Shown here piece after piece: positions 13,149 to 52,561 of a stretch of 64,000 nucleotides of DNA. Each line of letters opens with the position of its first letter. The stretch's first letter is position 1. The position numbers were made by a program, and so were the translations under genes. The notes under the pieces are model-generated. The model searched no databases and was not told the DNA's origin. It saw only the letters and a program-made list of their open reading frames with translations. Source of the DNA: Candidatus Latescibacterota bacterium (GTDB lineage Bacteria; Latescibacterota; CBDEFO01); contig OZ252149.1 of NCBI GenBank assembly GCA_965248755.1, positions 3,424,001 to 3,488,000 of the forward strand, in the 5' to 3' direction.

Positions 13149-13280
13149 TTGACCTTTCATACTGATAGTATAATACATCCTAACTGAAGAATCAATAAAA
13201 AATGGGAAGTTATTTCATACCGCTCCCCTTGACAGAGCGACAAATATTTCGCAAATTGGGGTTTGAGAAGGGAGGTCAAG

Positions 13281-13592
13281 GTGTCGAGCCCCGAAGTGAA
13301 AGATGGTAAGCGCTGGACGGCGACCCGTAAGGGAGAGATTGTGTTGGCTCTTTTGAGAGGAGCAGATCTATCTGAGGTGTGTCGTAAGAATGGAATTAGC
13401 CAGTCGCAGGCGTATGCTTGGCGTGATAGTTTCTTAGAAGGGGGCCAGGAGAGTCTGAAGTCTCGGCGTGGTCGCAAGGATCCGAAGGAGCGAGAGGTTA
13501 GCCGGTTGGAGCGCAAGGTAGGGCAGTTGACGCTCCAGTTGGAGATACTCGAAGAGGTAGCCCGTCTAAAAAAAACGAAGCGGTTGCCTTGA
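13281..13592 (+). CDS. IS3 transposase OrfA (HTH)
   Basis: SEVCRKNGISQSQAYAW HTH plus leucine zipper; GTG after AGGGAGG. Confidence 0.9.
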   Translation: MSSPEVKDGKRWTATRKGEIVLALLRGADLSEVCRKNGISQSQAYAWRDSFLEGGQESLKSRRGRKDPKEREVSRLERKVGQLTLQLEILEEVARLKKTKRLP

Positions 13593-14452
13593 GTGGGCGG
13601 TTTTTGGGTCGAGGCTATTCCCGCAAGGTGGTAGCTTTGGCTTTGGGTTTGCATCGTTCGACTCTGTATAGGTTTAGGGATAGAGGTGTCAGTTCTTCTG
13701 TTAAAGAGCCTGTGATAGATGAGGAGCTTGCTTTTCGTATTCGAGGGATACTGGACCAAGAAGAGGCATTTGGTCACAGGCGGGTTTGGGCGCATCTTCG
13801 TTTCAAGGAAGGGGAATGTGTCAACGTTAAGAAGGTTCATAGGATAATGAAGCTTAAGGGGTGGCAGTGTAAGCTGTGGAATCGTCCCGGGAGAAAGGGG
13901 CCACAGGTTGCCCAGAAGCGTTCTGTGGTGGATAGTCCCGACAGTTTGTGGTCGAGTGACTTGACAAAGATTTACTGTGGAAAAGATGGTTGGTGTCCTC
14001 TTATTGCGGTGGTGGACAACGGAAGCCGGGAGGTTCCTGGGTATCGTTTTAGTCGAAAAGGGAGGGCACTGGAGGCCACAGATGCCCTGGATCGGGCCGT
14101 GATCTCTCGATACACTTCCAAGGAGGCTGTCCCCCAGGGTCTCACTTTGCGCTCTGACAATGGTTCCATCTTTTTGGCTCGGGCCTATTTGGCCAGTACC
14201 GAATATTGGGGAATTCGTCAGGAATACATACCAAGTGGTAAACCCGATTGGAACGGTGTTGTAGAGCGTTTTTTCAGGACCCTCAAGCAAGAGTGTGTTT
14301 GGCTTCACAAGTTTGAATCCTTTGAACAGGCTGAGAAGATCATATCTCAGTGGATCGATAATTACAACAAGAACAGGCTTCATTCATCCCTGGGATATAA
14401 GACCCCAAAAGAGTGGAGAAAACAATTTTATCTACTACCCCAGGTTGCTTAA
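13589..14452 (+). CDS. IS3 transposase OrfB (DDE integrase core)
   Basis: WSSDLT, RSDNG, VERFFRTLKQE, HSSLGY. Confidence 0.95.
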   Translation: MSGRFLGRGYSRKVVALALGLHRSTLYRFRDRGVSSSVKEPVIDEELAFRIRGILDQEEAFGHRRVWAHLRFKEGECVNVKKVHRIMKLKGWQCKLWNRPGRKGPQVAQKRSVVDSPDSLWSSDLTKIYCGKDGWCPLIAVVDNGSREVPGYRFSRKGRALEATDALDRAVISRYTSKEAVPQGLTLRSDNGSIFLARAYLASTEYWGIRQEYIPSGKPDWNGVVERFFRTLKQECVWLHKFESFEQAEKIISQWIDNYNKNRLHSSLGYKTPKEWRKQFYLLPQVA

Positions 14453-14548
14453 TTGGTGTCGCTTTCCTGGGAAGCAGTACAATTTGCTGAAATTGGCTTA
14501 TCACTTTTTCTATGAGAAGGCTTATCTCGGAAACACGGAGGCATTAAA

Positions 14549-15457
14549 ATGGCGGAAAAGTTTGTAAGATTCACGGTTGAATCTGGTCGAGAAGTGTGGG
14601 GGAAAGTAGTAGACGAATCGGATATTTCGAATGTGAAGGCAGTAAGATTAGATGGCGAGGGACTCGAGGGACCTATTCGAAGTTACGAACGTCTATCCGA
14701 TCAATTACATACGGCAACCCAAAGAGAAGAGATTACAATCACAGAAGGCAGATTCCTTCCTCCCGTAAACCGTCCGCCAGATTTTCTGCCGAATATCTAC
14801 GCCGTGGGACTCAATTACTACGAACATGGAGCGGCGACCGGGCAGCTGGAAAAGGGCCAAAGGCCCGGAGCACCTATTCTGTTCCCTAAATGGACTACGT
14901 CGGTCACCTCCCACACTTCTCCGATCATTTTGCCTGCCTCAGCGCCAAACTGTGTGGATTATGAGGTAGAATTAGCCTTAATCATAGGCAAGGAGGGTAA
15001 GAACATCCCACCGGAAGCGGCGTTAGAATATGTATTAGGATTTACTATTGCAAACGATGTGAGTGCCCGTGACGTGCAGGGAATGTATCCCCAAATCCAA
15101 CCAAATAGTCAATGGGGAAAAGCAAAATCGTTTGACACATTCTGTCCCTTGGGACCATTCTTAGTTATGGACATAGACCCTCAAGACCAGGATATAATGT
15201 TGTATGTCGATGGAGACAGGAAACAATTGGGTAACACAGGCGATATGATGTACTCGTTAGCAGAGCTCATCGCCTATATTTCTCTGGATGCCAGGTTGTT
15301 GCCCGGAACGGTACTATTGACCGGGACGCCCAAAGGTACACAGGTAGAAGAGCATCATGCTGGAAGGGAGCCGCGTTATCTGAAAGCGGGTCAAGAGGTA
15401 GTAGCTCAAATCGGCGAGGTGGGAACCTTGGTAAACTGTGTCCAAGAATCTAAGTAA
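14549..15457 (+). CDS. Fumarylacetoacetate hydrolase family protein
   Basis: GLNYYEH, VDYEVEL, NDVSARD, KSFDTFCPLGP, TGTP. Confidence 0.93.
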   Translation: MAEKFVRFTVESGREVWGKVVDESDISNVKAVRLDGEGLEGPIRSYERLSDQLHTATQREEITITEGRFLPPVNRPPDFLPNIYAVGLNYYEHGAATGQLEKGQRPGAPILFPKWTTSVTSHTSPIILPASAPNCVDYEVELALIIGKEGKNIPPEAALEYVLGFTIANDVSARDVQGMYPQIQPNSQWGKAKSFDTFCPLGPFLVMDIDPQDQDIMLYVDGDRKQLGNTGDMMYSLAELIAYISLDARLLPGTVLLTGTPKGTQVEEHHAGREPRYLKAGQEVVAQIGEVGTLVNCVQESK

Positions 15458-15511
15458 AGCTTCTCCTAACTATTGCTGATCGTTGTGGAATTTCGAACAG
15501 GAGGACTCGAT

Positions 15512-16510
15512 ATGGCGAAAGATAAAATCAGGTGGGGTGTGTTGGGATGTGCCCGCATCGCTCTGAATTCTTTTCTTCCAGCATTAGCAAGTTCCGAAAC
15601 AGGAAGCCTAGCCGCCATCGCCAGCCGTGACAGATCCAAGGCCGAAGCTGAGGGCGAGAAATTCGGGGCGGAGAGGTTCTACGGATGCTACGAGGAGCTT
15701 TTGGACTCTGGTGGCATAGATGCCCTCTATATTCCATTGCCCAACAATATGCACAAAGAATACACCCTCAAGGCTGCGCAAAGGGGAATACACGTCCTTT
15801 GCGAAAAGCCGTTTGCTATGAACCAAAAGGAAGCCCTCGAAATGAAGGAAGCCTGCCGAAAAAATAGGGTCCGACTTATGAACGCCTTTATGTGGCACTT
15901 GGACCCCATGAATCAGCGGGCGCTTGAGATAGTACGTTTGGGAGAGATAGGAAAGATAAAATATATGAACGCTGCCTTTACCTCTAATCTTCCAAGACAG
16001 GACGATATCCGCCTGCAAAGAAAGATGGGAGGGGGGTCGCTTCTGGACGCCGGGGTCTATTGTGTCAACACCTTTCGACGTTTTATGAGGAAGGAACCGG
16101 TCGAAGTGGTGGGCCTATCTGTTACTCCTACGCTCAAAGCAGATGTGGATGAGACATTTAGCGGCCTACTCCGCTTTGATGAAGATGAGATAGCTGCATT
16201 CGTCGCCAGCTTCAGAATGAGCAGCCAGCAGCGATACGAGATAGTAGGCGAAAAGGGGAGAATACGTTCTCCCTGCGGTCCGTGGCACCGTAAAGAACCG
16301 AATAGGATAGAGGTCATAACAGATGACAACGTCAGGGAGGAGAACTTCGAGGAGAACGATCCGTTCAAAAACGAAATCGAGTATTTTACAGGGTGTATTC
16401 AGTCCGATAAGGAGCCTGACCCAGGCGGAGAGGACGGTTACCTTGAAATGAAAGTGCTGGATGCTCTTATGGAGTCTGCTCTGATGGGAAAGAAGGTTGA
16501 GATAAAATGA
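15512..16510 (+). CDS. Gfo/Idh/MocA family oxidoreductase
   Basis: WGVLGCARIA, HVLCEKP, GGGSLLDAGVY. AGGAGG SD before ATG 15512. Confidence 0.92.
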   Translation: MAKDKIRWGVLGCARIALNSFLPALASSETGSLAAIASRDRSKAEAEGEKFGAERFYGCYEELLDSGGIDALYIPLPNNMHKEYTLKAAQRGIHVLCEKPFAMNQKEALEMKEACRKNRVRLMNAFMWHLDPMNQRALEIVRLGEIGKIKYMNAAFTSNLPRQDDIRLQRKMGGGSLLDAGVYCVNTFRRFMRKEPVEVVGLSVTPTLKADVDETFSGLLRFDEDEIAAFVASFRMSSQQRYEIVGEKGRIRSPCGPWHRKEPNRIEVITDDNVREENFEENDPFKNEIEYFTGCIQSDKEPDPGGEDGYLEMKVLDALMESALMGKKVEIK

Positions 16511-16524
16511 CGTTTACATTGTTG

Positions 16525-16547
16525 CCCCCGATAGATTCACTCGGGGG
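16525..16547. repeat. Palindrome-family hairpin between convergent genes, may act as a terminator
   Basis: CCCCCGATAGATTCACTCGGGGG. Confidence 0.65.
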
Positions 16548-16548
16548 T

Positions 16549-17919: not shown

Positions 17920-18296
17920 GCCTGCTCCTTATTTACGCTGGGCCCGATAATTAGTCTTATTATTCTTCTATTTCCCCAAAGAGTTCCTGAATACTTTTGG
18001 GGGACCTTAGCGGCGAGGTAAATGAAAATACTTTGCTGAACCTTCGGAGATTCTGCACTTGGCTCTGGGCTAAAGGTTCTGTGCTTTGGCTTGTGATGAT
18101 GCAGCCTGCTCTTGTCTTCAGTCACTGCGAAGTGCCAGACCGCGATCCCTTAAGGAGTTGCCGAGCAGAACCGATCTCAAAAGCTTTCTCCTGCTGCAAG
18201 AAAGAGTGATCGTTCGACGTGTTTGGGGGTCGTCCCTCATTACAATGCAGGGTTCAAAACAGTTGACAGGATCGGAAAATCTTTCCTTATTCTGTA

Positions 18297-18325
18297 AATG
18301 TATCTAAAATCAGTGTAATTGTCAA
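18297..18325 (-). promoter_or_regulatory. Putative sigma70 promoter, giving a ~370-nt leader to the activator
   Basis: Minus strand TTGACA-N17-TACATT. Confidence 0.5.
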
Positions 18326-18341
18326 GAGCTTTCAAAGGGCT

Positions 18342-19553: not shown

Positions 19554-19568
19554 AAGTAGCCTTTCCGA

Positions 19569-19760
19569 TTAGATACCCGCTAGTACCCGTTCTATTTTCT
19601 CCTTCGACACGCAGGCCATAGAGGGTTTGATCACATAGTTGCTCACACCCGCTTTCATAGCTTCTATTTTATACTCCTGGATACTCCTTGTGTTGCCATA
19701 GGTATAGCTAGATCCTTCAAGTCACCGTCGCCATTTCGCCGGGCCCTCAGCAAGCTATCA
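19569..19760 (-). pseudogene. cheY: cheY-like remnant, truncated and frameshifted
   Basis: DGDLKDLAIPMAT, then after a frameshift RSIQEYKIEAMKAGVSNYVIKPSMACVSKEKIERVLAGI*, matching the CheY C-terminal half. Confidence 0.7.
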
Positions 19761-19771
19761 GGCAATCTGTT

Positions 19772-20224
19772 TTATCCTTTCCAGGCGATCCTCGGACGCC
19801 TTGAGTTTTTCCGAGTGGATGCGATTTTCCTGAAACTGTATCTTTGTGTTGCCATCTCGTACTGCTTTACAGCCCGCTCCACCGTATGCAACACCTCTGG
19901 TATGCCGAATGGCTTCACTATGTAGTCATATACTCCCTCTCTCAGCGCCTCCACCGCAGAGTTATAGCTCGGATAGGCGGTCATTATTATTACGGGGATT
20001 TCCTCATCTTTTGCGCCAATGGCCGACGTGACTTCCAGTCCATCTACTCCCGGCATCTTGAGATCCACTAACGCGGTGTGCAATGTCACTTCTTTAATCA
20101 TCTCGATCGCCTCTTGGCCATTTTGAGCTAAAAGGACGCTGTAGCCGCGACTGGTCAAAGAGCGACACAGCAGATCTCTTATCAAGAGCTCGTCGTCTAC
20201 TACCAAAACTGTCGTGATTTCCAC
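19772..20224 (-). CDS. Response regulator receiver protein
   Basis: LVVDDE, LVDLKMP, MTAY, YIVKPF. AAAGGAGG SD favours GTG at 20224. Confidence 0.88.
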   Translation of the reverse strand: MEITTVLVVDDELLIRDLLCRSLTSRGYSVLLAQNGQEAIEMIKEVTLHTALVDLKMPGVDGLEVTSAIGAKDEEIPVIIMTAYPSYNSAVEALREGVYDYIVKPFGIPEVLHTVERAVKQYEMATQRYSFRKIASTRKNSRRPRIAWKG

Positions 20225-29605: not shown

Positions 29606-29789
29606 AAAATTAACAAAGCTACCCTTCCCATCTTTGTATGCCCCCAACTGTTTGCTGTCGATTGGTCAAGGCTTACTTCAACTGTGAAAAAGACTAACAA
29701 AAATGAGGAGAACAAAAGACAAACCATACCGCTCCCCTTGACAGAGCGACAAATATTTCGCAAATTGGGGTTTGAGAAGGGAGGTCAAG

Positions 29790-30101
29790 GTGTCGAGCCC
29801 CGAAGTGAAAGATGGTAAGCGCTGGACGGCGACCCGTAAGGGAGAGATTGTGTTGGCTCTTTTGAGAGGAGCAGATCTATCTGAGGTGTGTCGTAAGAAT
29901 GGAATTAGCCAGTCGCAGGCGTATGCTTGGCGTGATAGTTTCTTAGAAGGGGGCCAGGAGAGTCTGAAGTCTCGGCGTGGTCGCAAGGATCCGAAGGAGC
30001 GAGAGGTTAGCCGGTTGGAGCGCAAGGTAGGGCAGTTGACGCTCCAGTTGGAGATACTCGAAGAGGTAGCCCGTCTAAAAAAAACGAAGCGGTTGCCTTG
30101 A
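29790..30101 (+). CDS. IS3 transposase OrfA
   Basis: Translation identical to copy 1. Confidence 0.9.
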   Translation: MSSPEVKDGKRWTATRKGEIVLALLRGADLSEVCRKNGISQSQAYAWRDSFLEGGQESLKSRRGRKDPKEREVSRLERKVGQLTLQLEILEEVARLKKTKRLP

Positions 30102-30961
30102 GTGGGCGGTTTTTGGGTCGAGGCTATTCCCGCAAGGTGGTAGCTTTGGCTTTGGGTTTGCATCGTTCGACTCTGTATAGGTTTAGGGATAGAGGTGTCA
30201 GTTCTTCTGTTAAAGAGCCTGTGATAGATGAGGAGCTTGCTTTTCGTATTCGAGGGATACTGGACCAAGAAGAGGCATTTGGTCACAGGCGGGTTTGGGC
30301 GCATCTTCGTTTCAAGGAAGGGGAATGTGTCAACGTTAAGAAGGTTCATAGGATAATGAAGCTTAAGGGGTGGCAGTGTAAGCTGTGGAATCGTCCCGGG
30401 AGAAAGGGGCCACAGGTTGCCCAGAAGCGTTCTGTGGTGGATAGTCCCGACAGTTTGTGGTCGAGTGACTTGACAAAGATTTACTGTGGAAAAGATGGTT
30501 GGTGTCCTCTTATTGCGGTGGTGGACAACGGAAGCCGGGAGGTTCCTGGGTATCGTTTTAGTCGAAAAGGGAGGGCACTGGAGGCCACAGATGCCCTGGA
30601 TCGGGCCGTGATCTCTCGATACACTTCCAAGGAGGCTGTCCCCCAGGGTCTCACTTTGCGCTCTGACAATGGTTCCATCTTTTTGGCTCGGGCCTATTTG
30701 GCCAGTACCGAATATTGGGGAATTCGTCAGGAATACATACCAAGTGGTAAACCCGATTGGAACGGTGTTGTAGAGCGTTTTTTCAGGACCCTCAAGCAAG
30801 AGTGTGTTTGGCTTCACAAGTTTGAATCCTTTGAACAGGCTGAGAAGATCATATCTCAGTGGATCGATAATTACAACAAGAACAGGCTTCATTCATCCCT
30901 GGGATATAAGACCCCAAAAGAGTGGAGAAAACAATTTTATCTACTACCCCAGGTTGCTTAA
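30098..30961 (+). CDS. IS3 transposase OrfB
   Basis: Translation identical to copy 1. Confidence 0.95.
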   Translation: MSGRFLGRGYSRKVVALALGLHRSTLYRFRDRGVSSSVKEPVIDEELAFRIRGILDQEEAFGHRRVWAHLRFKEGECVNVKKVHRIMKLKGWQCKLWNRPGRKGPQVAQKRSVVDSPDSLWSSDLTKIYCGKDGWCPLIAVVDNGSREVPGYRFSRKGRALEATDALDRAVISRYTSKEAVPQGLTLRSDNGSIFLARAYLASTEYWGIRQEYIPSGKPDWNGVVERFFRTLKQECVWLHKFESFEQAEKIISQWIDNYNKNRLHSSLGYKTPKEWRKQFYLLPQVA

Positions 30962-31612
30962 TTGGTGTCGCTTTCCTGGGAAGCAGTACAAAACGGAGGC
31001 TCTTGAAACGGGCATTCCGCAAAGAGCAGCGGACGTTCTGCTGACCAATGAAAGGGGCCAGGATAAGGATTTAAGCTCTGTCCTTTCCGATCTTTGTGAA
31101 CTCATTGAAAGGGAAATAGAGGCCTTCAACTGGCTAATGTCGCTGCTTAAAGAACAAAAAAGGATAATCGGCGACGGAGAATTAGAAGGCTTCAAAGAAA
31201 ATCTGATGAGGCAGGAAGAGACTATCGCCAAGGCCCGATTCCTCAAGCAGGACAGGATAAACAAGATGAAGACTATTGCCCTAAAGTTGAGCATTCCTTC
31301 TGAAGGATTAACGATGATAAAGCTTATCCAGTCGGTACAGGAACAGTACTCATCAAGATTGAAGGAGCTGAGAGATACCCTGATAACCCTTGCGGGAAGA
31401 ATCAACTGGGTGACCAAAGACAACAGGTATCTGATAGAACGATCTCTAAATACTGTGGATAAGAACCTAAAGATCATAGTCGGAGCTGCAGAGAAAAATC
31501 ATCTCTACCTTAAGCAGAACGGCCCCAAGGGCTCCATCCGATCGGAAAGCTCGGTCAAGAGGATACTCGATCTTACATTCTAAAGACCTCAACAAAAGAG
31601 GAGAAGTCAGTC

Positions 31613-34933: not shown

Positions 34934-35475
34934 AGATCAATCCAAAGACCAAATAGGTGGTGTGACCACTCCTGATAGATTCGAGATTCTCAAGGAAGAA
35001 GTTGAAAAGGCCCCCCAATCGCTTGAGACAAACAGGAACCTCGCCAACTACTTGATGGAAAGCAGCAGAGAGGACGAGGCAGAGCAGTACCTGGAGGTGA
35101 TGCTAAAGTTGGACCCCGGTTGTGCCGAGGCGCACAACGCCCTCGGGATGATATGCTCCAACAGGGACCAGGTAGAGAGTGCTGAACGTCATTTTATGAA
35201 GGCCTTAATGTTCGATTTCGGACTTACCGAAGCCCACTTCAATTTAGCGTCGTTCTATTACGGTCAAGGCAAGTACAAAGAGGCTCTTTCCTACTATAAA
35301 GAAGTTATCACAGCGGATCCTAACGACTACAGGACGTACTGCTTTATGGGAGAATGCGCCCTAAGGTGCAACATGGAAAGCGAGGCCGAAGCTTTCTTTT
35401 TGGAAGCTGTCATACCGCTCCCCTTGACAGAGCGACAAATATTTCGCAAATTGGGGTTTGAGAAGGGAGGTCAAG

Positions 35476-35787
35476 GTGTCGAGCCCCGAAGTGAAAGATG
35501 GTAAGCGCTGGACGGCGACCCGTAAGGGAGAGATTGTGTTGGCTCTTTTGAGAGGAGCAGATCTATCTGAGGTGTGTCGTAAGAATGGAATTAGCCAGTC
35601 GCAGGCGTATGCTTGGCGTGATAGTTTCTTAGAAGGGGGCCAGGAGAGTCTGAAGTCTCGGCGTGGTCGCAAGGATCCGAAGGAGCGAGAGGTTAGCCGG
35701 TTGGAGCGCAAGGTAGGGCAGTTGACGCTCCAGTTGGAGATACTCGAAGAGGTAGCCCGTCTAAAAAAAACGAAGCGGTTGCCTTGA
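35476..35787 (+). CDS. IS3 transposase OrfA
   Basis: Translation identical to copy 1. Confidence 0.9.
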   Translation: MSSPEVKDGKRWTATRKGEIVLALLRGADLSEVCRKNGISQSQAYAWRDSFLEGGQESLKSRRGRKDPKEREVSRLERKVGQLTLQLEILEEVARLKKTKRLP

Positions 35788-36647
35788 GTGGGCGGTTTTT
35801 GGGTCGAGGCTATTCCCGCAAGGTGGTAGCTTTGGCTTTGGGTTTGCATCGTTCGACTCTGTATAGGTTTAGGGATAGAGGTGTCAGTTCTTCTGTTAAA
35901 GAGCCTGTGATAGATGAGGAGCTTGCTTTTCGTATTCGAGGGATACTGGACCAAGAAGAGGCATTTGGTCACAGGCGGGTTTGGGCGCATCTTCGTTTCA
36001 AGGAAGGGGAATGTGTCAACGTTAAGAAGGTTCATAGGATAATGAAGCTTAAGGGGTGGCAGTGTAAGCTGTGGAATCGTCCCGGGAGAAAGGGGCCACA
36101 GGTTGCCCAGAAGCGTTCTGTGGTGGATAGTCCCGACAGTTTGTGGTCGAGTGACTTGACAAAGATTTACTGTGGAAAAGATGGTTGGTGTCCTCTTATT
36201 GCGGTGGTGGACAACGGAAGCCGGGAGGTTCCTGGGTATCGTTTTAGTCGAAAAGGGAGGGCACTGGAGGCCACAGATGCCCTGGATCGGGCCGTGATCT
36301 CTCGATACACTTCCAAGGAGGCTGTCCCCCAGGGTCTCACTTTGCGCTCTGACAATGGTTCCATCTTTTTGGCTCGGGCCTATTTGGCCAGTACCGAATA
36401 TTGGGGAATTCGTCAGGAATACATACCAAGTGGTAAACCCGATTGGAACGGTGTTGTAGAGCGTTTTTTCAGGACCCTCAAGCAAGAGTGTGTTTGGCTT
36501 CACAAGTTTGAATCCTTTGAACAGGCTGAGAAGATCATATCTCAGTGGATCGATAATTACAACAAGAACAGGCTTCATTCATCCCTGGGATATAAGACCC
36601 CAAAAGAGTGGAGAAAACAATTTTATCTACTACCCCAGGTTGCTTAA
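35784..36647 (+). CDS. IS3 transposase OrfB
   Basis: Translation identical to copy 1. Confidence 0.95.
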   Translation: MSGRFLGRGYSRKVVALALGLHRSTLYRFRDRGVSSSVKEPVIDEELAFRIRGILDQEEAFGHRRVWAHLRFKEGECVNVKKVHRIMKLKGWQCKLWNRPGRKGPQVAQKRSVVDSPDSLWSSDLTKIYCGKDGWCPLIAVVDNGSREVPGYRFSRKGRALEATDALDRAVISRYTSKEAVPQGLTLRSDNGSIFLARAYLASTEYWGIRQEYIPSGKPDWNGVVERFFRTLKQECVWLHKFESFEQAEKIISQWIDNYNKNRLHSSLGYKTPKEWRKQFYLLPQVA

Positions 36648-39600
36648 TTGGTGTCGCTTTCCTGGGAAGCAGTACACTGTTAGCCTCAAGCCCGACTTTG
36701 TGGAAGCCGCTCTGTTACTATCGGACATGCTTTTGGAGCAAAAGCGATTGCCTGAGGTGCAGGAACGGCTTGCGGAACTTGTGAAGTTCTATCCTGATAT
36801 GGCGGAAGTTCAGCTTGCGCTCGGACTCGTTCTGAAAGAACAAGAAAAGTATGAAGAGGCTCTTAGTCACTTGAGAGAGGCCGTGCTTTGTGACTCAGAC
36901 GATCCCGACGTCTACAACGCTTTGGGAGAATGCTGTGTCAAGATCCAGGCCTACGACCAAGCTGAAAGCTTCTACGCCCAGGCTTTAAGGCTCCGTCCCG
37001 ATTTCGACCTTGCCATGGCTAACCTGGGAGAACTCTACTATGACCGGAGCGACTTCCATAGTGCCCTTTTGGTCTTTGAACAGCTCAAGATACTTTCTCC
37101 AGACGACCCCGAGATCGCCGCTTTGATCAAAGAATGTCTCTCAAAAAAAGGAGCCGAAATACTCATAGTGCAGGAAGAGGGCATAGGAAATATGGTCATG
37201 TTGACCCCTGCCATCAGAGCCATTAAGGAGAACCTCCCCAACTGCAACGTAACCGTGCTCGGAAAATATCCATCCTTGGAGGTAATCGAGGGCTGGGAGC
37301 TCGTTGACAAAACCATTACAGAGTTTGACGACAGAGTATATGACTACGTCTTTTTCACTATATGGTCTCTCAATACCAAGAGACAGTTCGGGGATGCCAT
37401 AACTTCAAAGTGCCGAAACATAGTGGAAATAAACTACAATGACCCTTCCACTCACGAGGTGGGCTATCACCTTGAGATATCCAGGCATTTAGGCTATCAC
37501 ACAGAGAATCCCTCCACATACTGTGCCATCGAGGATGTGGAGTTGGAGTTGCCCGACGATGCCACCGTCGTGGGGATATGCGACACCACGCGTTTGGGAC
37601 CCTGGGAGAGAAAGAGATGGCCCTATTATAAAGACCTCGCCCGGATGTTAGTGGACGACGGATACGCGGTCGTACTGATCGGTGGTCCTCAAGAAGCTGA
37701 GAGATTCAAGAAAGAAGAGTGGCCCGAAGAAGTCATAAACTGCCTCGGTAAATATAGGGTGGCCCAGACTGCGGGAATACTAAACAAATGCGACATCGTA
37801 ATAGCCAATGACAGCGGCCCTGCCCATATAGCCGCTGCCCTCGGCACGAAGACCTATACGCTCTTTGGACCCACCAGAGTGACCAAGAACCAGCCGATAG
37901 GTCCTCAGGTTCAGGTTCTAACCAAAAATCTCCCGTGCAGCCCCTGTCAGTACACGACCGGATGGGACGAATGTTCCGACTGGCAGTGCATGAGTCAAAT
38001 CAGCCCGCAAGAGGTCATGCAAGCCATCAAGGATGGAAGATCAGCTTTTCCTTCTGAGGTCTTTGATTCCAGCGCTGCAGTGGATACTCCATTTGAAGAA
38101 GCTGCACCTGAGCATATGTCTGTTGCGGACCCTGAACCGGTCGAAAGTAGACAGCAAACAGTAAACAGTAGACAGGGCACTTCCTCCCCTCCCTCCGGCG
38201 GATTGTCCCTTATCTCCAAGGACTACTCCGACTGCCGCGTAGTCCGGGAGGATAACATCACGTACGTAGAGAGAGACGGTTTTCGAGAGCAGCTTAAGGT
38301 TCACCTTGTCGGAGCCAGATGGGCTAACTTCCCCTGGGGAATGGAAAATGAGGTCTTCCGCTCGTTTGAGAAGATGGGATGCGAGGTCTTCGACACCGAC
38401 TACAGGCTCCAGGCGGATAACCTGGACGAGCTGTTCTTAAGAGAGGCGCATCTTACGCTTGTATTCAAAGGCAGTGGCATCCAGCCTGAACTTATAGAGG
38501 AACTTAAATGTCCCTCAATACTATGGTATCAGGACGATATATTCACCACCGGCCATGGCAGGAGGGATATCGCCTACTCGGGTTCTGCATACGACAGGGT
38601 CTATACCTTTGACAAGAGCGCGATAGAGGAATACAAAAATTACGGCATTAAAGATGTAAGGTGGCTTCCGCTTTGTATGAGTCCGGCTGTGCATAAGAAG
38701 ATGTACATACCGAAAGTCCACGACGTCTCCTTCGTCGGGAATATATATCCCAACAGGGAAAGATTGATATCGCGGCTCAGGGAGAGGTTCGACGTCTTCG
38801 TAACGAAGGCCTATATGGACGAGATGGTCAAGGTTTTCAACGAATCCAAGATCGTCCTGAACCTCGGCATAGGCAACACTGGAATACAGTCCAGAGTCTT
38901 TGAAGCCCTCGGCTGTGGAAGTTTCCTTTTGACCAACGAAATACAGCAAGACGCCAGGCTCTTCAAGGATAGAAAACACCTTGTCTATTTCAACGAGTCG
39001 GACATTGAAGAAGCCGTAGCGTACTACCTAGAAAACGAAGAGGAGCGTGAGCAGATAGCGCTGCATGGTTACCTGGAGGCGAACCGCGCCCATACCTACG
39101 ACCACAGGGTCGAGGCTGTCTTGAAAGACCTCTTCCCACTGATTCCAGACAGAAGCAGTCGGGGCCAAGATAGCCAAGAGGATCGGGACAAGAAAAGCTC
39201 GATTCCAATCATTAGCCCCTCAGAGGAGGAATTGACTCCTAAGAGGCGTCTCTTAGTCTTCTGGCACGGAATCGGAGACAACATAATGGCCACTCCTTCC
39301 CTGCGCGCCCTCAAGGAAAAATATCCCGATGATTCCCTGGGTTTTATGTATCTAAAGAGGATAGACAAAGACGGTCTATTCGACGAGAATCCCTACATAG
39401 ACGCCACGTATACGTGCAGCGACGCTTGGGACGATTACGCCGATTACGAAACCGGAGTCAAGGCTATTTTGGAGGAGGCCAGGCAAGTCGCAGAGAAAGA
39501 GGGCTACGACGAGATTTTGCCTGTGACCCTTCGCTCTTGCTCTCTGGAAAATCACAGGATTTATCGTATAGCGCACGAACTCGGTGTTGAGCTATCGAAC

Positions 39601-44100: not shown

Positions 44101-46101
44101 CTTTTTGGGTTGTTATGGACATCCAAGTGCCAAGACCCCTAACATAGACAGAATAGCATCTGAAGGGGTGCTCTTTGAGGAACCCCGGACACAGTATATG
44201 TGTACGGTTCACTCAATTATTGCGATGATGACAGGCTCAAATATTGAGGTGGATGACAAGAACACGCTCTTTGGCATTCTATCGGATAGGGGTTATAAGA
44301 CTTTAAATAGTTTTTATCACAAACCACAATGGGGACACTGCAAGTTGCATCACGCTGAGTTTTGTCAGGAGAGTATTAACGAGTGGATAGATGAAAACCA
44401 GCACGAGAACTTTTTGATGTTGCTCTGGTATCATCAGACACATAGCCCCTACGGTTCAGAGAATCATTGGGGTTCACGGGACTCTGTCAGGCCAACATAC
44501 TTTATTAACCCAATAAGCCGCGAATTTTTGAAGCATCAGCCCAGTATCCCCCCAGAGAGTTTGTGCCAAATGGATATGGAGCAGAAGGATCGAAGATTGT
44601 CCCAGCTTTTTAAGCAGGGCAATATGGAACCAATTGAGAAGGTGTATATAGAAGCGATTGAGGAGGTAGATCGGCAAATAGGGGAAATTGATCAGCATCT
44701 TAGAGACTTAAACCTTGACGAAAAGACTATATTTATCGTAACATCAGATCATGGCCAGGATTTTAATAACCCCGTTGCAAGAGAGGCAGGCCTGAATTTT
44801 CACTATAAAACGCGCTCTAAAGATGCCAGGCGGGTTGTATTGATAATGAGACAGAAGCATTATCAGCCTGCTGGCAAGAGAGTATCTACCGTTGTAAGGC
44901 TTGTGGATTTATTTCCAACGGTGATAGAGATGTTAAATATTGATGTACCAGAAGCTGTTGGCCCTCTCTCAATTGTTGGAAGGAGCCTGATGCCTGTTAT
45001 TAGAGGAAGAGATACCGAAGATCGCCCAGAGCCATGCAGTATAATAGGGACGTTTGAAAACGCCGATACGGAGACTCGGCTAAGAAATCTGGCGGATGAT
45101 TTCACCGTTGTAAAGCTCGGAGACTTGTACATAAGGGAGAATAGACTCGATGAGGCAATAAAACATTACGAAGAAGCTTTAGAGATAAATCCTGATAATT
45201 CCGATGCCTATAACGGTTGGGAATACGCCCTCCTTCAAAGCCGTAATCTGCTATCTGTCCTTGGAAAGATCTATCTTAATAAGAAACGCTACAACGACGC
45301 TATAAGTACCTACCAAGAACTCCTTGAGCAGAGAGAAATAATCGAAAAAGATCCAAATTTCAAGGCCTACGTTATGGACACGAAGTCAAGGAACAGCGCT
45401 ATCAGGGCAACCATTGGTGAGTGCTACCGACTTTTGGGAGACTACGAAAAGGCTATAGATTATTTGAAAAACGCTATTGCCCAGGATGACCAGCATCTCG
45501 ACCTCTACAAAAGCCTTGCTTTCTGTTATATTGAGACGGGGGAATTACCTGACGCCCGGCGTACGCTTGATAGAGTAGCTGCAGTTGGAATAGCTGACGA
45601 TTTTGTCTTTGTAAAGCTTGGAGACTTGTACATAAGGGAGAACAGACTCGATGAGGCAATAAAACAGTACGAAGAAGCTTTAGAGATAAATCCTGATAAT
45701 TCCAATGCCTATAATGGCTGGGGATACATCCTCCTTATGAAAGGCCAAGAGGAGGATGCAGATTTGAAATTTTCAAAGGCACTTGAGCTTAATCCCAACC
45801 ACGAACGGGCTCATTTCAATCTTATGAAGCTGAAGTTCGCCCAGGGGGCACACCAGGAGACACTGGAACAGATTGATAAGTTAGTGTCGTTGGAACCCCA
45901 AAGCGCTGAAATATACAGAGAATCTGGAAACATCTGCGTCAGGCTTGGAAAGTACGAGAAAGCTATTGAACTGTACGAAGAATGCATCCGACAAGATCCG
46001 ACAGACAAAGTTACTATGTCCAACGTTGCCTCCTGCCATACCGCTCCCCTTGACAGAGCGACAAATATTTCGCAAATTGGGGTTTGAGAAGGGAGGTCAA
46101 G

Positions 46102-46413
46102 GTGTCGAGCCCCGAAGTGAAAGATGGTAAGCGCTGGACGGCGACCCGTAAGGGAGAGATTGTGTTGGCTCTTTTGAGAGGAGCAGATCTATCTGAGGTG
46201 TGTCGTAAGAATGGAATTAGCCAGTCGCAGGCGTATGCTTGGCGTGATAGTTTCTTAGAAGGGGGCCAGGAGAGTCTGAAGTCTCGGCGTGGTCGCAAGG
46301 ATCCGAAGGAGCGAGAGGTTAGCCGGTTGGAGCGCAAGGTAGGGCAGTTGACGCTCCAGTTGGAGATACTCGAAGAGGTAGCCCGTCTAAAAAAAACGAA
46401 GCGGTTGCCTTGA
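46102..46413 (+). CDS. IS3 transposase OrfA
   Basis: Translation identical to copy 1. Confidence 0.9.
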   Translation: MSSPEVKDGKRWTATRKGEIVLALLRGADLSEVCRKNGISQSQAYAWRDSFLEGGQESLKSRRGRKDPKEREVSRLERKVGQLTLQLEILEEVARLKKTKRLP

Positions 46414-47273
46414 GTGGGCGGTTTTTGGGTCGAGGCTATTCCCGCAAGGTGGTAGCTTTGGCTTTGGGTTTGCATCGTTCGACTCTGTATAGGTTTAGGG
46501 ATAGAGGTGTCAGTTCTTCTGTTAAAGAGCCTGTGATAGATGAGGAGCTTGCTTTTCGTATTCGAGGGATACTGGACCAAGAAGAGGCATTTGGTCACAG
46601 GCGGGTTTGGGCGCATCTTCGTTTCAAGGAAGGGGAATGTGTCAACGTTAAGAAGGTTCATAGGATAATGAAGCTTAAGGGGTGGCAGTGTAAGCTGTGG
46701 AATCGTCCCGGGAGAAAGGGGCCACAGGTTGCCCAGAAGCGTTCTGTGGTGGATAGTCCCGACAGTTTGTGGTCGAGTGACTTGACAAAGATTTACTGTG
46801 GAAAAGATGGTTGGTGTCCTCTTATTGCGGTGGTGGACAACGGAAGCCGGGAGGTTCCTGGGTATCGTTTTAGTCGAAAAGGGAGGGCACTGGAGGCCAC
46901 AGATGCCCTGGATCGGGCCGTGATCTCTCGATACACTTCCAAGGAGGCTGTCCCCCAGGGTCTCACTTTGCGCTCTGACAATGGTTCCATCTTTTTGGCT
47001 CGGGCCTATTTGGCCAGTACCGAATATTGGGGAATTCGTCAGGAATACATACCAAGTGGTAAACCCGATTGGAACGGTGTTGTAGAGCGTTTTTTCAGGA
47101 CCCTCAAGCAAGAGTGTGTTTGGCTTCACAAGTTTGAATCCTTTGAACAGGCTGAGAAGATCATATCTCAGTGGATCGATAATTACAACAAGAACAGGCT
47201 TCATTCATCCCTGGGATATAAGACCCCAAAAGAGTGGAGAAAACAATTTTATCTACTACCCCAGGTTGCTTAA
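46410..47273 (+). CDS. IS3 transposase OrfB
   Basis: Translation identical to copy 1. Confidence 0.95.
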   Translation: MSGRFLGRGYSRKVVALALGLHRSTLYRFRDRGVSSSVKEPVIDEELAFRIRGILDQEEAFGHRRVWAHLRFKEGECVNVKKVHRIMKLKGWQCKLWNRPGRKGPQVAQKRSVVDSPDSLWSSDLTKIYCGKDGWCPLIAVVDNGSREVPGYRFSRKGRALEATDALDRAVISRYTSKEAVPQGLTLRSDNGSIFLARAYLASTEYWGIRQEYIPSGKPDWNGVVERFFRTLKQECVWLHKFESFEQAEKIISQWIDNYNKNRLHSSLGYKTPKEWRKQFYLLPQVA

Positions 47274-47544
47274 TTGGTGTCGCTTTCCTGGGAAGCAGTA
47301 CACTGCTACGCGAAACTCAGGGATTTAGAATCCGCCCAGATGGCGTATCAGAACGCTCTTAGCATTGACCCTGATTACAGCGAGGCATCGTGCAACCTCA
47401 AAGTGATTGAAAACGCCATAGCTGAACTCGGTGAAGAGAAGATGGCAGATGCCGCCTCGTAGTATATAGATCGACAGGATAGTTTACGAAAACTCATAAC
47501 AGGAAGAACAAAAAGACTGTGCCCTTATCAGGAAAGTATCTCGG

Positions 47545-49500
47545 ATGATACATAGCATAAGAAATTTAGGATTCTTTGAAGATCATAAGATAGAACTTAA
47601 TTCTGTGGTTGATCTCGGGGCTCATCACGGTGAAGTAGCGATATACTTTGCCCAAAGTAATCCTTCGGCAAGGATTCTGGCTGTTGAAGGATCGAGTCAA
47701 AGTTTTGCTATCCTCAAGGAGAATGTTGAAAGACAGAACCTCTTAAGTAACAACATCATTTTAGTAAATGAAGCCATATCGGATAGAGCAGGTGTTGTCG
47801 ATATGACATTAGATAGAGGAGGCGAAAATACGATTGTTTTAGATGAAAAAAAGCGATGGCGTTATCACCCATGGTTGAAGCCCTTCCGAAAAGAAAATTT
47901 GAGGACCGAAAAGGTCAAAAGCGATACACTTTCAAATCTGTTGAAACGATATAATTTTGATTATGTTGATTTCATGAAGGTTGATATTGAGGGAGTTGAA
48001 CCCTTGCTCTATGAAAGTTTAGAGAAGGATTCTTCAATCATCAAATCAATCTTTATTGAACTCGGCTCTTTAAAGACCCTTGATGGTGATCATAGATTAA
48101 TGGGACTACTGTTTAGGAAAGATTTTAAGTGTTTTGATCTATGGGGGACAGAGTTAAAAAGTTTAGATGTAGCTAAGGAGTATTTGTACAAAGGATGGAT
48201 AAATAAGGAATCGATCCCAAATCTTTGGTTTCTCCAGGGAAAACACAGCAAAAAGAGCTATCACAGCAGCTTTAAGAGCCTCGAAAGGCAGATAGAAGAG
48301 GATCCTAACAACACCTTAGCCTGGTACAACCTGAATCAAATCTTGCGCGACAAAGGAGAATTTGACAAAGCTGTCGAAAATGGAATTCGCGCTCTTTCTT
48401 TCAAACCCTATGAGGAGGACCGGAAAACCTATCTTATGCTCCTCTTCAACACAGCCTACTGCTGCCTTATGAGTGGACACTTGGACGAAGGCGAGAGATT
48501 GTGCCAAGAAGGTTTAACGTACAACCCTCAAAGTCTCAATCTGCTATCTTTCCTTTCTGTCCTTGGAGGTATCTATTTTAATAAAAAACGCTACAACGAC
48601 GCTATAAGTACCTACCAAGAATTCCTTAAGCAGAGAGAAATAATCGAAAAAGATCCAAATTTCAAGGCCTACGTTATGGATACGAGGTCAAGGAAGAGCG
48701 CTATCAGGGCAACCATTGGTGAGTGCTACCGACTTTTGGGAGACTACCAGAAGGCTATAGATTATCTGAAGAACGCTATTACCCAGGACGACCAGCATCT
48801 CGACCTCTACAAAAATCTTGCTCTCTGTTATATTCTGATGGGCGAATTGCCTGGTGCCCGGTGTACCCTTGAAAGGGCGGTTGAAGTTGGAATAGCCGAC
48901 GATCGCACCTTTGTAAAGCTCGGAGACTTGTACATAAGGGAGAAGAGACTCGATGAGGCAATAAAACAGTACGAAGAAGCTTTAGAGATAAATCCTGATA
49001 ATTCCGATGCCTATAACGGTAGGGGATACGCTCTCCTTATGAAAGGCCAAAAGGAGGATGCAGATTTGAAATTTTCAAAGGCTCTTGAGCTTAATCCCAA
49101 CCACGAACGCGCTTGCTTCAATTTTGTGAAGCTGAAGTTCTCCCAGGGGGCACACCAGGAGACACTGGAACAGATTGATAAGTTAGTGTCGTTGGAACCC
49201 CAAAGCGCTGAAATATACAGAGAAGCTGGAAACATCTGCGTCCAGCTTGGAAAGTACGAGAAAGCTATTGATCTGTACGAAGAATGTATCATACAAGATC
49301 CTACAGACAAAGTTACTATGTCCAACGTTGCCTCCTGCTACGCGAAACTTGGGCATTTAGAATCCGCCCAGATGGCGTATCAGACTGTTCTCAGCATTGA
49401 TCCTAACTACGCCGAGGCAACCCGCAGCCTCAAGGTAGTTGAAGACTTGATAACCAAATACGGAATTGGCGAACAGAGTATGGTTGATGCCGCCTTGTAG
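47545..49500 (+). CDS. FkbM-family methyltransferase plus TPR tail (intact)
   Basis: VVDLGAHHG, LAVEG, FMKVDIEGVE, followed by multiple TPRs. Confidence 0.92.
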   Translation: MIHSIRNLGFFEDHKIELNSVVDLGAHHGEVAIYFAQSNPSARILAVEGSSQSFAILKENVERQNLLSNNIILVNEAISDRAGVVDMTLDRGGENTIVLDEKKRWRYHPWLKPFRKENLRTEKVKSDTLSNLLKRYNFDYVDFMKVDIEGVEPLLYESLEKDSSIIKSIFIELGSLKTLDGDHRLMGLLFRKDFKCFDLWGTELKSLDVAKEYLYKGWINKESIPNLWFLQGKHSKKSYHSSFKSLERQIEEDPNNTLAWYNLNQILRDKGEFDKAVENGIRALSFKPYEEDRKTYLMLLFNTAYCCLMSGHLDEGERLCQEGLTYNPQSLNLLSFLSVLGGIYFNKKRYNDAISTYQEFLKQREIIEKDPNFKAYVMDTRSRKSAIRATIGECYRLLGDYQKAIDYLKNAITQDDQHLDLYKNLALCYILMGELPGARCTLERAVEVGIADDRTFVKLGDLYIREKRLDEAIKQYEEALEINPDNSDAYNGRGYALLMKGQKEDADLKFSKALELNPNHERACFNFVKLKFSQGAHQETLEQIDKLVSLEPQSAEIYREAGNICVQLGKYEKAIDLYEECIIQDPTDKVTMSNVASCYAKLGHLESAQMAYQTVLSIDPNYAEATRSLKVVEDLITKYGIGEQSMVDAAL

Positions 49501-50938
49501 CCAGTTGAGCTATCGAAATTGGGTTCGTTCAACATGTGGGGTTTAATTCTAGAGATTGATGCCGATGCATGCCGTTGTAATTGTTGTTGGGAAAAACCAT
49601 GGATAGGGGTAAGACATGCAAGAGTGTCACAGTATTGAGAATTTCTTTGCAAAACACAAAATAGAACTCAGGTCAGTTGTTGATATTGGAGCCGAGATCG
49701 GCAAAATTACTCTTTACTGTGCAGAAAAAAACCCCAAAGCGAGAATTTTGGCTATTGAAGGATCAAGTCGAAATTTTTCTGTTCTTCAGAAGAATATTCA
49801 GAGATCTGGCTTTAACAATATTATCTTAATAAATAAGCTTGTTTCAGATAGAGTAGACACGATTGACGTGTCTACTGGCAGAGGATCAGAAAATACCATT
49901 ATTTTAGATAAAAGAAATTTGAGGATAAGATATGAACCCCAAACAGAGAAAGTTCAATCAGATACACTATCAAATTTGTTGAGACAACATAATTTTGATT
50001 ATGTTGATTTCATGAAGATCGATATTGAGGGAGGTGAACCATTACTTTATGAAAGCTTAAAAAGGTATGCATCGGATATAAAATCCCTATTTATCGAATT
50101 TGGCTATATGAATACAAAAGATAGCTATTTTTCACTATTAGAACTATTATTCGAAAAAGGATTTTTGTGTTTTAAGGACTTTGGTGAAGAATTAACAACC
50201 CTTAAAGAAGCCCAAAAATATTTTAGTGAAAAATGGGATATTAGAGAAATTACCAACCTTTGGTTCTTACAGAAAAAGCACGCTAATATTACTTCTCAAA
50301 ATCAACGAACCCTATCAGATTGCATGATCGTCAAAGACGAAGAAGAGTTCATGTCTAGGCGCATTGAAAGCTTCGAAAAGCAGATAGAAGAAAATCCCAA
50401 CAACACGTTTGCATGGTTAAACTTCAATCAAATCTTGCGCGACAAGGGAGAATTCAACAGAGCTGTCGAAAATGGAAAGCACGCTCTTTCTCTTGAATCC
50501 TACGAAGAGGACCCAGGAACTTATCTCATGTTGCTCGACGATACAGTTTACTGCTGTCTTATGAGTGGACGCTTGGACGAAGGCGAAAAACTGTGCCAAG
50601 AGGGTTTAAAGCATAATCGTAAAAACCTCGATTTGCTATGCACCCTTGCAAATATCTATTTTAGGAAAAAACGCTACGATGACGCTATAAATGCCTATCA
50701 AGAATTCCTCAAGCAGAGAGAAATAGCGGAAAAAAGTCCAAACGTTTACTCCCATATTGTGATCACGTGGTCATTCCAGAGTATTGTCAGGAACAACATC
50801 GCTCAGTGCTACCGGCTTTTGGGAGACTACGAAAAGGCTATAGATTATCTGAAAAACGCTATTGCCCAGGACGACCAGCCTCTCGACCTCTACAAGAGCC
50901 TCGCTTTCTTGTACTGCTTCCCAGGAAAGCGACACCAA

Positions 50939-51802
50939 TTAAGCAACCTGGGGTAGTAGATAAAATTGTTTTCTCCACTCTTTTGGGGTCTTATATCCCA
51001 GGGATGAATGAAGCCTGTTCTTGTTGTAATTATCGATCCACTGAGATATGATCTTCTCAGCCTGTTCAAAGGATTCAAACTTGTGAAGCCAAACACACTC
51101 TTGCTTGAGGGTCCTGAAAAAACGCTCTACAACACCGTTCCAATCGGGTTTACCACTTGGTATGTATTCCTGACGAATTCCCCAATATTCGGTACTGGCC
51201 AAATAGGCCCGAGCCAAAAAGATGGAACCATTGTCAGAGCGCAAAGTGAGACCCTGGGGGACAGCCTCCTTGGAAGTGTATCGAGAGATCACGGCCCGAT
51301 CCAGGGCATCTGTGGCCTCCAGTGCCCTCCCTTTTCGACTAAAACGATACCCAGGAACCTCCCGGCTTCCGTTGTCCACCACCGCAATAAGAGGACACCA
51401 ACCATCTTTTCCACAGTAAATCTTTGTCAAGTCACTCGACCACAAACTGTCGGGACTATCCACCACAGAACGCTTCTGGGCAACCTGTGGCCCCTTTCTC
51501 CCGGGACGATTCCACAGCTTACACTGCCACCCCTTAAGCTTCATTATCCTATGAACCTTCTTAACGTTGACACATTCCCCTTCCTTGAAACGAAGATGCG
51601 CCCAAACCCGCCTGTGACCAAATGCCTCTTCTTGGTCCAGTATCCCTCGAATACGAAAAGCAAGCTCCTCATCTATCACAGGCTCTTTAACAGAAGAACT
51701 GACACCTCTATCCCTAAACCTATACAGAGTCGAACGATGCAAACCCAAAGCCAAAGCTACCACCTTGCGGGAATAGCCTCGACCCAAAAACCGCCCACTC
51801 AA
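50939..51802 (-). CDS. IS3 transposase OrfB
   Basis: Translation identical to copy 1. Confidence 0.95.
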   Translation of the reverse strand: MSGRFLGRGYSRKVVALALGLHRSTLYRFRDRGVSSSVKEPVIDEELAFRIRGILDQEEAFGHRRVWAHLRFKEGECVNVKKVHRIMKLKGWQCKLWNRPGRKGPQVAQKRSVVDSPDSLWSSDLTKIYCGKDGWCPLIAVVDNGSREVPGYRFSRKGRALEATDALDRAVISRYTSKEAVPQGLTLRSDNGSIFLARAYLASTEYWGIRQEYIPSGKPDWNGVVERFFRTLKQECVWLHKFESFEQAEKIISQWIDNYNKNRLHSSLGYKTPKEWRKQFYLLPQVA

Positions 51803-52110
51803 GGCAACCGCTTCGTTTTTTTTAGACGGGCTACCTCTTCGAGTATCTCCAACTGGAGCGTCAACTGCCCTACCTTGCGCTCCAACCGGCTAACCTCTCG
51901 CTCCTTCGGATCCTTGCGACCACGCCGAGACTTCAGACTCTCCTGGCCCCCTTCTAAGAAACTATCACGCCAAGCATACGCCTGCGACTGGCTAATTCCA
52001 TTCTTACGACACACCTCAGATAGATCTGCTCCTCTCAAAAGAGCCAACACAATCTCTCCCTTACGGGTCGCCGTCCAGCGCTTACCATCTTTCACTTCGG
52101 GGCTCGACAC
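51799..52110 (-). CDS. IS3 transposase OrfA
   Basis: Translation identical to copy 1. Confidence 0.9.
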   Translation of the reverse strand: MSSPEVKDGKRWTATRKGEIVLALLRGADLSEVCRKNGISQSQAYAWRDSFLEGGQESLKSRRGRKDPKEREVSRLERKVGQLTLQLEILEEVARLKKTKRLP

Positions 52111-52561
52111 CTTGACCTCCCTTCTCAAACCCCAATTTGCGAAATATTTGTCGCTCTGTCAAGGGGAGCGGTATGTTCTGTTATATGGAGTCAGGGAAAT
52201 TACCTAACGCCGAGCGTGTGCTTGAAAGCGCTGTTGAAGCTGGAATAGCCGACGATCCCACCTTTGTAATGGCTGAAGTTTACAAAGATGCTGGAGATAT
52301 CTGCGTCAAACTCGAAAGGTACGAGAAAGCTATTGATTTGTACGAAGGATGCATCAGACGGGATCCTACAGACAAAGTCACTTTGTCAAACATGGCCTCC
52401 TGCTACGCAAAACTTGGGCATTTAGAATCGGCGAAGATGGCGTATCAGACTGCTCTCAGCATTGATCCTAACTACACCGAGGCAGCCCGGAACCTCAGGG
52501 TTATAGACAACGCCATAGCTAAACTCGGCGAAGAGAAGATGGCAGATGCCACATCATAAAT

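Follow-up and report, generated by a model that had tools for sequence, protein, structure and literature searches.

IS3 transposases, Mu, and retroviral integrases all act, in the textbook view, on a CA-3′ tip. The window analysed here, a stretch of 64,000 nucleotides, contains five copies of an insertion sequence that begins with CA at its left end. An earlier note reasoned that one transferred strand of this element would end in TG-3′, and this inference holds. The locus raises the question of whether the unusual end is real and, if so, how an element that carries it has spread.

Copies and boundaries of the element

The copies and their target-site duplications (TSDs) are as follows.

13216..14481, + strand: copy 1, intergenic (neighbouring genes: anthranilate-synthase-like and FAA-hydrolase); TSD ATTT at 13212-13215 and 14482-14485
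29725..30990, + strand: copy 2, inside an FlgN-encoding frame; TSD AAAC
35411..36676, + strand: copy 3, inside a TPR/glycosyltransferase/methyltransferase gene; TSD CTGT
46037..47302, + strand: copy 4, inside a sulfatase-TPR gene; TSD CTGC
50910..52175, - strand: copy 5, inside an FkbM-TPR gene; TSD TTCT (+ strand)

The five 1266-bp copies are 100% identical and, as the earlier note had described, each is flanked by its own 4-bp TSD. The left tip reads CATACCGC and the right tip, reverse-complemented, reads TGTACTGC. Of the 45 exact copies in the genome, 30 are flanked by a 4-bp TSD precisely at these boundaries (the chance rate of a random 4-bp match is 0.4%), and any shifted boundary gives at most nine copies with a TSD (lengths of 4 or 5 tested). 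Distinct simple TSD events number 46 (33 of the 1266-bp form and 13 of a 1288-bp variant), all CA-tipped inside the duplication; against these precise 4-bp cases stand one of 5 bp and one of 3 bp. Among the 97 left-end cores in the genome, 95 start with CA, one with TG, and one with TT, the last being a weak match that a longer core search did not recover. Neither a target-site consensus nor target homology was found at 29 insertion sites. The precise 4-bp events, together with the lack of a target consensus, point to concerted two-ended joining. The element is very active, and its proposed boundaries stand, as the genome-wide test did not find other copies with different ones.

Removal of the element plus one TSD restores the host frame in copies 29725 (39+196 aa, FlgN), 35411 (180+1823 aa), 46037 (682+51), and 50910 (432+126); removal of three or five bases instead of four does not. 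The claim that host frames are restored is thus correct for four of the five copies and inapplicable to the intergenic copy at 13216. A boundary or assembly artefact, with CA being target sequence or a consensus error, is refuted and retains almost no probability. Nothing was found in its favour, and CA is missing from the restored host frames. CA was also seen in a second genome, where 23 of 25 left cores start with it, in 10 metagenome contigs, and in an independent run, in which the element is one contig of exactly 1266 letters with zero differences (X1; depth 2.2).

Gene organization and family membership

The features of copy 1, all on the + strand, are listed below.

13216..13261: left inverted repeat, tip 5′-CA; 9/13 outer and 18/25 inner matches after a 2-bp gap
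13281..13592: orfA, HTH, weak DUF1153; likely GTG start behind GGAGG
13568..13575: A8 run (A_AAA_AAA), predicted -1 frameshift to a 390-aa OrfAB
13589..14452: orfB, DDE integrase core D124, D190, E226; K233; scores above the IS3 cut-off of NCBIfam
14438..14481: right inverted repeat, ending in the canonical CA-3′

The left repeat has 2 bp more than the right one; they lie between its outer run of C and its inner GCGACA box. The ORF finder places the start of orfA at TTG 13263.

The assignment to IS3 made in the earlier note is upheld by OrfA, a predicted A8 slip site, and a DDE-type OrfB. The length of 1266 bp and the position of orfB in the -1 frame relative to orfA correspond to the family layout (1.2-1.5 kb), and the imperfect terminal repeats of 46 and 44 bp and the 4-bp TSD correspond to its range (about 20-45 bp and 3-5 bp). 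OrfB, an integrase-like DD35E protein, scores 208 bits against NF033516 (cut-off 160), with D124, D190, and E226 conserved. A slip at the A8 run would give an open 390-aa fusion, and downstream hairpins, scored without a shuffle control, are present at this predicted frameshift. The IS481 family was rejected on a model score of 116 (cut-off 224), two ORFs instead of one, and a left tip of CAT instead of TGT. A departure from a typical IS3 element is the tip pair TG...CA, which the CA of nearly all left cores breaks. Membership stands because these tips are not obligatory for the family: PMC3219604 gives them for IS3 "in most cases", and IS2 is an accepted exception. A plasmid search for a catalogued match gave no DNA match and a best protein match below 40%, and a comparison with the PDB turned up no structure of an IS3 transposase.

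Comparison with known systems

IS2 is the best-studied tip exception, yet it retains the 3′ A. According to PMC3299598 and PMC3219604, its left end is TA-3′, 1 bp longer, and a recipient only. This end supplies the -10 element of Pjunc and becomes able to act as donor in step II, and its position 2 sets joining accuracy. The TA tip was confirmed in the E. coli K-12 record (IS2A). Like IS2, our element departs from the canonical left tip but has A at its second position, and it has a longer left repeat and orfA and orfB with an A-run frameshift (predicted in our element). The split junction promoter of IS2 recurs in the TA-tipped relatives. It differs in that the left transferred strand ends in G, the TSD is 4 instead of 5 bp, the offset is 2 instead of 1 bp, and the junction promoter is decayed. 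OrfB is 23% identical and the tree does not group the two. Membership of the IS2 subgroup was therefore rejected on identity, tree, tip, promoter, and TSD.

The nearest annotated relatives are IS3 elements of 1210-1217 bp on enterobacterial, Aeromonas, Vibrio, and Ralstonia plasmids (OrfB 38-40%), which, judging from length and host range, are probably ISKpn40 and its kin. They share the DUF1153-type OrfA and form a sister group in the tree, but their tips are canonical TG...CA in six of six loci. IS150 and IS3 from E. coli K-12 have the same gene layout (OrfB 30% and 25% identical, respectively), and the TGTACTG tips of IS150 resemble the right tip of our element; unlike it, IS150 has canonical tips on either side. 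According to PMC3219604, IS150 and IS3 use both ends as donors. Retroviral integrases have the same catalytic core as OrfB, and the OrfB loop that precedes the catalytic Glu aligns with the PYNPQSQG loop of integrase. Integrase K159, which reads the A of CA-3′ (PMC3219604), has its equivalent in K233 of OrfB, although one end of the element offers G.

Left tips among relatives

All 10 metagenome relatives with 72-95% protein identity have CA as their left tip; this tip is TA in 17 of 17 loci at 44-63% identity that hold the left end (6 of the 23 loci in this range lack it and are outside the count), and TG in six of six loci near 39% identity. Automatic end calling was unreliable for distant loci and named plasmid elements, so the TG labels of the group at 40-44% come from visual inspection of part of its loci, with 13 loci given no tip label. 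In quick trees, the CA rows form one clade (SH-aLRT 98) nested in a TA+CA group (96 and 99), and the TG group is the sister. The CA tip is thus a trait of the whole clade, which has a single origin and likely arose from IS2-like ancestors. The larger TA-tipped group resembles IS2 in its longer left end and junction promoter and, because the CA clade is nested within it, the CA tip is one transition away from the known TA exception. It is not a two-base inversion of TG. In a sister branch (L060-L062), a right tip of CG-3′ accompanies a left tip of CA; the 3′-A is therefore dispensable in this group, in which CA, TA, TG, and CG tips all occur.

The possibility that catalogued relatives already have this end was addressed for plasmid relatives only, the nearest of which (38-40%) are TG...CA. 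A literature search, with most classic IS papers outside its coverage, found no IS3 element with a CA left tip. Viral contigs contained no relatives, and a phylum search gave matches only in the element's own genus, in 2 of 168 genomes (up to 14 candidates scored per genome); in a smaller genome set, 2 of 41 matched.

G217 and D220, which align with integrase Y143 and Q146, distinguish CA rows from TA rows, and the catalytic-helix residues are unchanged. P0012, a 75% relative, retains E220. With at least this one exception and a single origin, these residues are only a lead towards an active-site explanation.

Junction and inner promoters

Two further features, like all promoter calls here, are consensus matches only.

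13229..13257, + strand: predicted inner promoter, TTGACA, 17 bp, CAAATT (9/12), absent from a second promoter scan
Right repeat, 17 nt from the tip: decayed -35, TCGCTT

By the same measure, the junction promoter of the TA clade matches 5/6 at -35 and 4-5/6 at -10 in 12 of 12 rows, and both junction hexamers match only 2-3/6 in the CA rows (11 of 11). The inner promoter matches 8-10/12 in CA rows and 7-9/12 in TA rows. TA members would thus have a strong IS2-type junction promoter spanning both tips, with a spacing that requires a junction spacer of 0-1 bp, and the CA clade seems to have lost this ancestral circle-junction promoter. As the clade has a single origin, the correlation between CA tip and promoter decay counts as one event.

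Circle junctions and end pairing

No circle or tandem junction was found in the genome with spacers from -2 to 11, in the fetched relative loci, or in JGI metagenomes (0 matches to a pattern that fits close relatives only). Run contigs gave no end-to-end joint; circles are rare, and junction unitigs, which would have fewer than 31 letters per side, may escape detection. Junction hits in viral contigs (22 and 2) were all rejected as unrelated hairpins with no transposase nearby.

An intact empty site validated seven end pairs, of which all are left+right and none is right-right; the 4-bp-compatible right-right pairs had no joined empty site, or one partner was already paired elsewhere. A 420-bp mini-element has 14 copies with one left flank and 13 different right flanks. 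Two left ends, one with a TG tip, sit at a single target site (TSD CTAT; empty site seen in G001), which could be a left-left event.

Pathways for a TG-3′ end

The reading we favour, and consider probable, is IS2-like copy-out/paste-in transposition in which the right end alone serves as donor. The T of the left tip would have changed to C, and the transposase would cut TG-3′ and join it when the element inserts. This reading is supported by the precise TSD events, the tips and trees of the relatives, the contrast in junction promoters, the IS2 precedent, the left+right end pairs, the flanks of the mini-element, and the CG-3′ right tip of L060-L062. As no circle junction was seen, we infer the circle pathway, the donor polarity, and the spacer length. 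After a nick, the right CA-3′ would be linked to the left tip or a point close to it; the first bases of this tip would not be tested in this step because the left end acts only as recipient. Replication would give a circle with abutted ends, with a spacer of 0-1 bp in the TA ancestors as judged from promoter spacing. Both tips would then be cut and joined to the target with a 4-bp stagger. The ancestral TA tip would have formed the -10 box of the junction promoter; once the inner promoter had taken its place, T would have become C, and the A at position 2 was probably kept for recipient geometry, as in IS2. The active site would take any pyrimidine-purine 3′ step. Against this reading, the IS2 junction promoter is described as essential, so that a highly active element lacking it must obtain its transposase in some other way; the site with two left ends and the single origin of the CA clade also count against it.

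A junction with a shared core is a conceivable but improbable alternative. In this scheme, the attack by the right CA-3′ falls two bases within the left end, so that the circle has one CA common to both tips; when the element inserts, a cut with a 2-nt stagger restores CA to each end, the left CA being a copy of the right. It is similarly doubtful that the lineage moved to such a negative-spacer junction, with an integrase-type DDE enzyme opening the shared CA and the left tip rewritten from the donor in each cycle. Read as a direct repeat, the left tip is indeed the same as the right tip, the left repeat exceeds the right by exactly 2 bp, and the overlap would destroy the junction promoter, explaining its decay. 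The sole TG-tipped left end faces another left end, and TG is what that end would donate; with the same small probability, this site would be the record of a negative-spacer junction. However, it is equally explained by a left+right composite followed by a 723-bp deletion, from the right tip of the mini-element to the inner left end, which gives the same TG hybrid. Copying cannot yield the CG right and CA left tips of L060-L062, the 2-bp offset also exists in the TA group, where the tips are uncoupled, a single transition turns TA into CA, and the overlapped junction was found neither in the genome nor in JGI metagenomes or viral contigs.

Slightly less probable still is a symmetric pathway of the IS3/IS911 type, in which either end is donor, the spacer is 3-4 bp, and the enzyme is relaxed at both tips. 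The 4-bp TSD would fit the rule, given for IS3, IS150, and IS911 in PMC3299598, that spacer equals TSD; the possible left-left event and the CG-3′ right tip of the sister branch, as tolerance at the presumed donor end, also agree with it. It is opposed by the longer left repeat, as one extra bp abolishes donor function in IS2 (PMC3299598), by the lack of a validated right-right composite, and by the promoter spacing of the TA group. Far more unlikely is single-end transfer, in which the transposase is responsible for joining the canonical right end alone, leaving the left end to host repair or recombination. This would spare the enzyme a TG-3′ substrate, and such processing is known for IS911 with one dead end, but the precise 4-bp duplications with just two exceptions, the invariant left boundary, and the lack of target homology all speak against it.

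Implications

The element is a main mutagen in its host, and four of the five copies in the window break genes, which encode a flagellar protein and TPR/glycan-modifying enzymes. Annotation tools that presume TG...CA would misplace CA-tipped ends. The clade supplies natural, highly active TG-3′ and CG-3′ substrates beside TA- and TG-tipped relatives, and this natural tip series therefore makes both the reading of the terminal base and the need for a junction promoter testable by simple swaps.

Copies and boundaries

Self-comparison of the window recovers five 1266-bp copies that are 100% identical, and each lies beside the 4-bp target site duplication (TSD) claimed for it in the earlier note. 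The left tip of the element reads CATACCGC and the right tip, reverse-complemented, TGTACTGC.

Window features:
13216..14481 (+), copy 1 of the element
13568-13575, A8 run in copy 1
13157-14383 (-), antisense open frame of about 400 aa, present through each copy
28110-52559, cluster of flagellar and TPR/glycosyl-/methyltransferase genes, with paralogous repeats inside it

Across the 4.54-Mb genome the exact copies number 45, and a 4-bp TSD lies at these boundaries in 30 of them (chance rate 0.4% per site). Moving either boundary by up to 4 bases fits no better across the 45, which speaks against different boundaries in other copies. CA stands directly inside the duplication in 46 distinct simple insertions, variants included, and the remaining genomic copies are mostly parts of composites or rearrangements. 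The earlier claim that excision restores the host frames holds at four window copies when the element and 4 bases are removed, and does not apply to copy 1, which is intergenic; removal with 3 or 5 bases does not reopen the frames. An independent run yielded one contig that is exactly the 1266-bp element. In the congeneric genome G001, left cores are CA in 23/25 and CG in 2/25, one CG lying at a site where the present genome (G000) has CA, and right cores are CA in 21/22. In the own genome, remnants that are old and diverged likewise start with CA in 13/13 cases. The CA-tipped element is real, active, and clade-wide.

Two target duplications depart from the usual length, one with 5 bp and one with 3 bp (G000:C1:3015014 and 1573874/1643511), other events being 4-bp. 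Two left-end-like sequences (G000:C1:1326936 and 1330457) start with GGTACTG and keep the TTGACAGAGCGACAA box intact, with unrelated DNA downstream.

Several derivatives accompany the element. A 420-bp mini-derivative lies at G000:C1:465327-465746 and 13 more places (11 exact copies); the flank of its own left end never changed, and its right end, paired with a left end from the full element, carries a truncated helicase-like passenger. A 1288-bp variant, 91% identical (G000:C1:2436704-2437991 and 12 more TSD sites), differs by an inserted 20-bp palindrome and by extra single bases in orfB; its spread was in trans, with the same CA...CA tips. The antisense frame has no Pfam match at E 0.1 and is probably a shadow ORF. 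Four of the five window copies break genes in the flagellar cluster, which suggests that flagellar glycosylation is decaying or is selected against.

Family identity and relatives

OrfA, an HTH protein, matches DUF1153 weakly, and OrfB scores above the NCBIfam IS3 cut-off and below that for IS481. The A8 run would fuse OrfA and OrfB into a predicted 390-aa protein, and D124, D190, E226, and K233 are conserved across 45 homologues. The element is an IS3-family member outside the IS2 subgroup; identity is 30% to IS150, 25% to IS3, and 23% to IS2. The nearest annotated relatives, plasmid elements at 38-40% identity, carry the canonical TG...CA tips at 6/6 loci and offer no precedent for the CA end. 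The plasmids searched gave no DNA match to the element, and a structure search for an IS3 transposase gave no match.

An alignment-based metagenome scan returned the best 80 of at least 540 loci; among these, the left tip is CA in 10/10 loci at 72-95% identity, and of 23 loci at 44-63%, 17 retain a left end, which starts with TA in 17/17 (mostly TATACT, five with a TSD). Two of the 10 CA loci are flanked by a 4-bp TSD, and a third matches over the 3 available bases; the others are probably collapsed multi-copy contigs. The 40-44% group has a TG left tip, as read by eye; L110 and L118, which are more distant, have TA. Two quick trees place the CA rows in a single clade (SH-aLRT 98) within a TA+CA group (96, 99) whose sister is TG-tipped, so CA derives from TA by one transition. 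Two independent variants (L060-L062) have a CG-3' right tip and still a CA left tip; in these loci both transferred strands would have a G end.

End anatomy and junction promoters

The outer 13 bp of the left and right repeats are in register, the left having 2 extra bp ahead of the inner box; by eye, the TA group shows an equal 2-bp offset. In TA-clade rows that include both ends, the left tip is TATACT or TATTCT, and a TTGACT or TCGACA sits 17 nt inward of the right tip (12/12). Judged by consensus matches, abutted TA-clade ends with a 0-1 bp spacer would make a sigma-70 promoter. Both junction hexamers match just 2-3 of 6 positions in 11/11 CA rows; as the CA clade arose once, this association of promoter decay with CA counts as a single event. 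An inner promoter of the TTGACA-17-CAWATT type matches consensus at 8-10 of 12 positions in CA rows, against 7-9 in TA rows.

TATACT left tips mark a broad IS3 group unrelated to IS2 (L063-L083, L131, L110, L118); in its near clade a TTGACT is found 17 nt inward of the right tip. The predicted IS2-type junction promoter of this group is apparently of independent origin.

Mechanism of joining

DDE chemistry joins 3' ends. Since the duplication abuts CA, any two-ended model gives the left transferred strand a TG-3' end. Joining of this end by the host is disfavoured because the 46 insertion events are too precise. In a shared-core junction, the two tips of the circle would share one CA, the left CA being copied from the right tip. 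This predicts a target with a left end on either side, one of them bearing the 3' dinucleotide of the other, as seen for G000:C1:2434658, where the sole left end tipped with TG lies. The G001 empty site shows its target partner to be another left end at 2708202 (TSD CTAT), which an inferred inversion has placed on the opposite side at a distance of 273 kb. The same letters, however, would arise from insertion of the usual left-end and mini-element composite followed by a 723-bp loss from the mini-element right tip to an inner left end, and the CG/CA branch contradicts obligatory copying of the tip; we consider a shared core unlikely. The host bases ahead of the TG-tipped left end, GCACTA, resemble the right-tip core of the element.

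The 14 copies of the mini-element have one left flank and 13 right flanks, and the end pairs that an intact empty site confirms join left with right in 7/7, which suggests that step I pairs a left with a right end. These observations favour, as the probable reading, an asymmetry like that of IS2, in which the requirement for a pyrimidine-purine step is relaxed: the left end would be joined as a TG-3' strand by an enzyme whose tip requirement is relaxed to that extent. Two IS2 reports (PMC3299598, PMC3219604) describe a left end that terminates in TA-3' and is one bp longer, acts exclusively as recipient in step I, and acquires donor function in step II; the tip of this end serves as the -10 box in a junction promoter described as essential; position 2 is required for joining accuracy, and the A of CA-3' is contacted by integrase K159 (PMC3219604). 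The K-12 record confirmed the IS2 tip as TAGACT. PMC9462459 supplies context on ISKpn40, and the IEE preprint (10.1101/2023.06.07.543989) the general copy-out model. Circle junctions were found in none of the genome, JGI metagenomes, viral contigs, fetched loci, or run contigs, so we infer spacer, polarity, and promoter use. No literature on a CA left tip was found, in a search with thin coverage of classic IS papers and with ISfinder outside the comparison. The element probably works like IS2; what is new here is the routine transposition of a strand ending in G, together with a junction promoter that appears to be lost.
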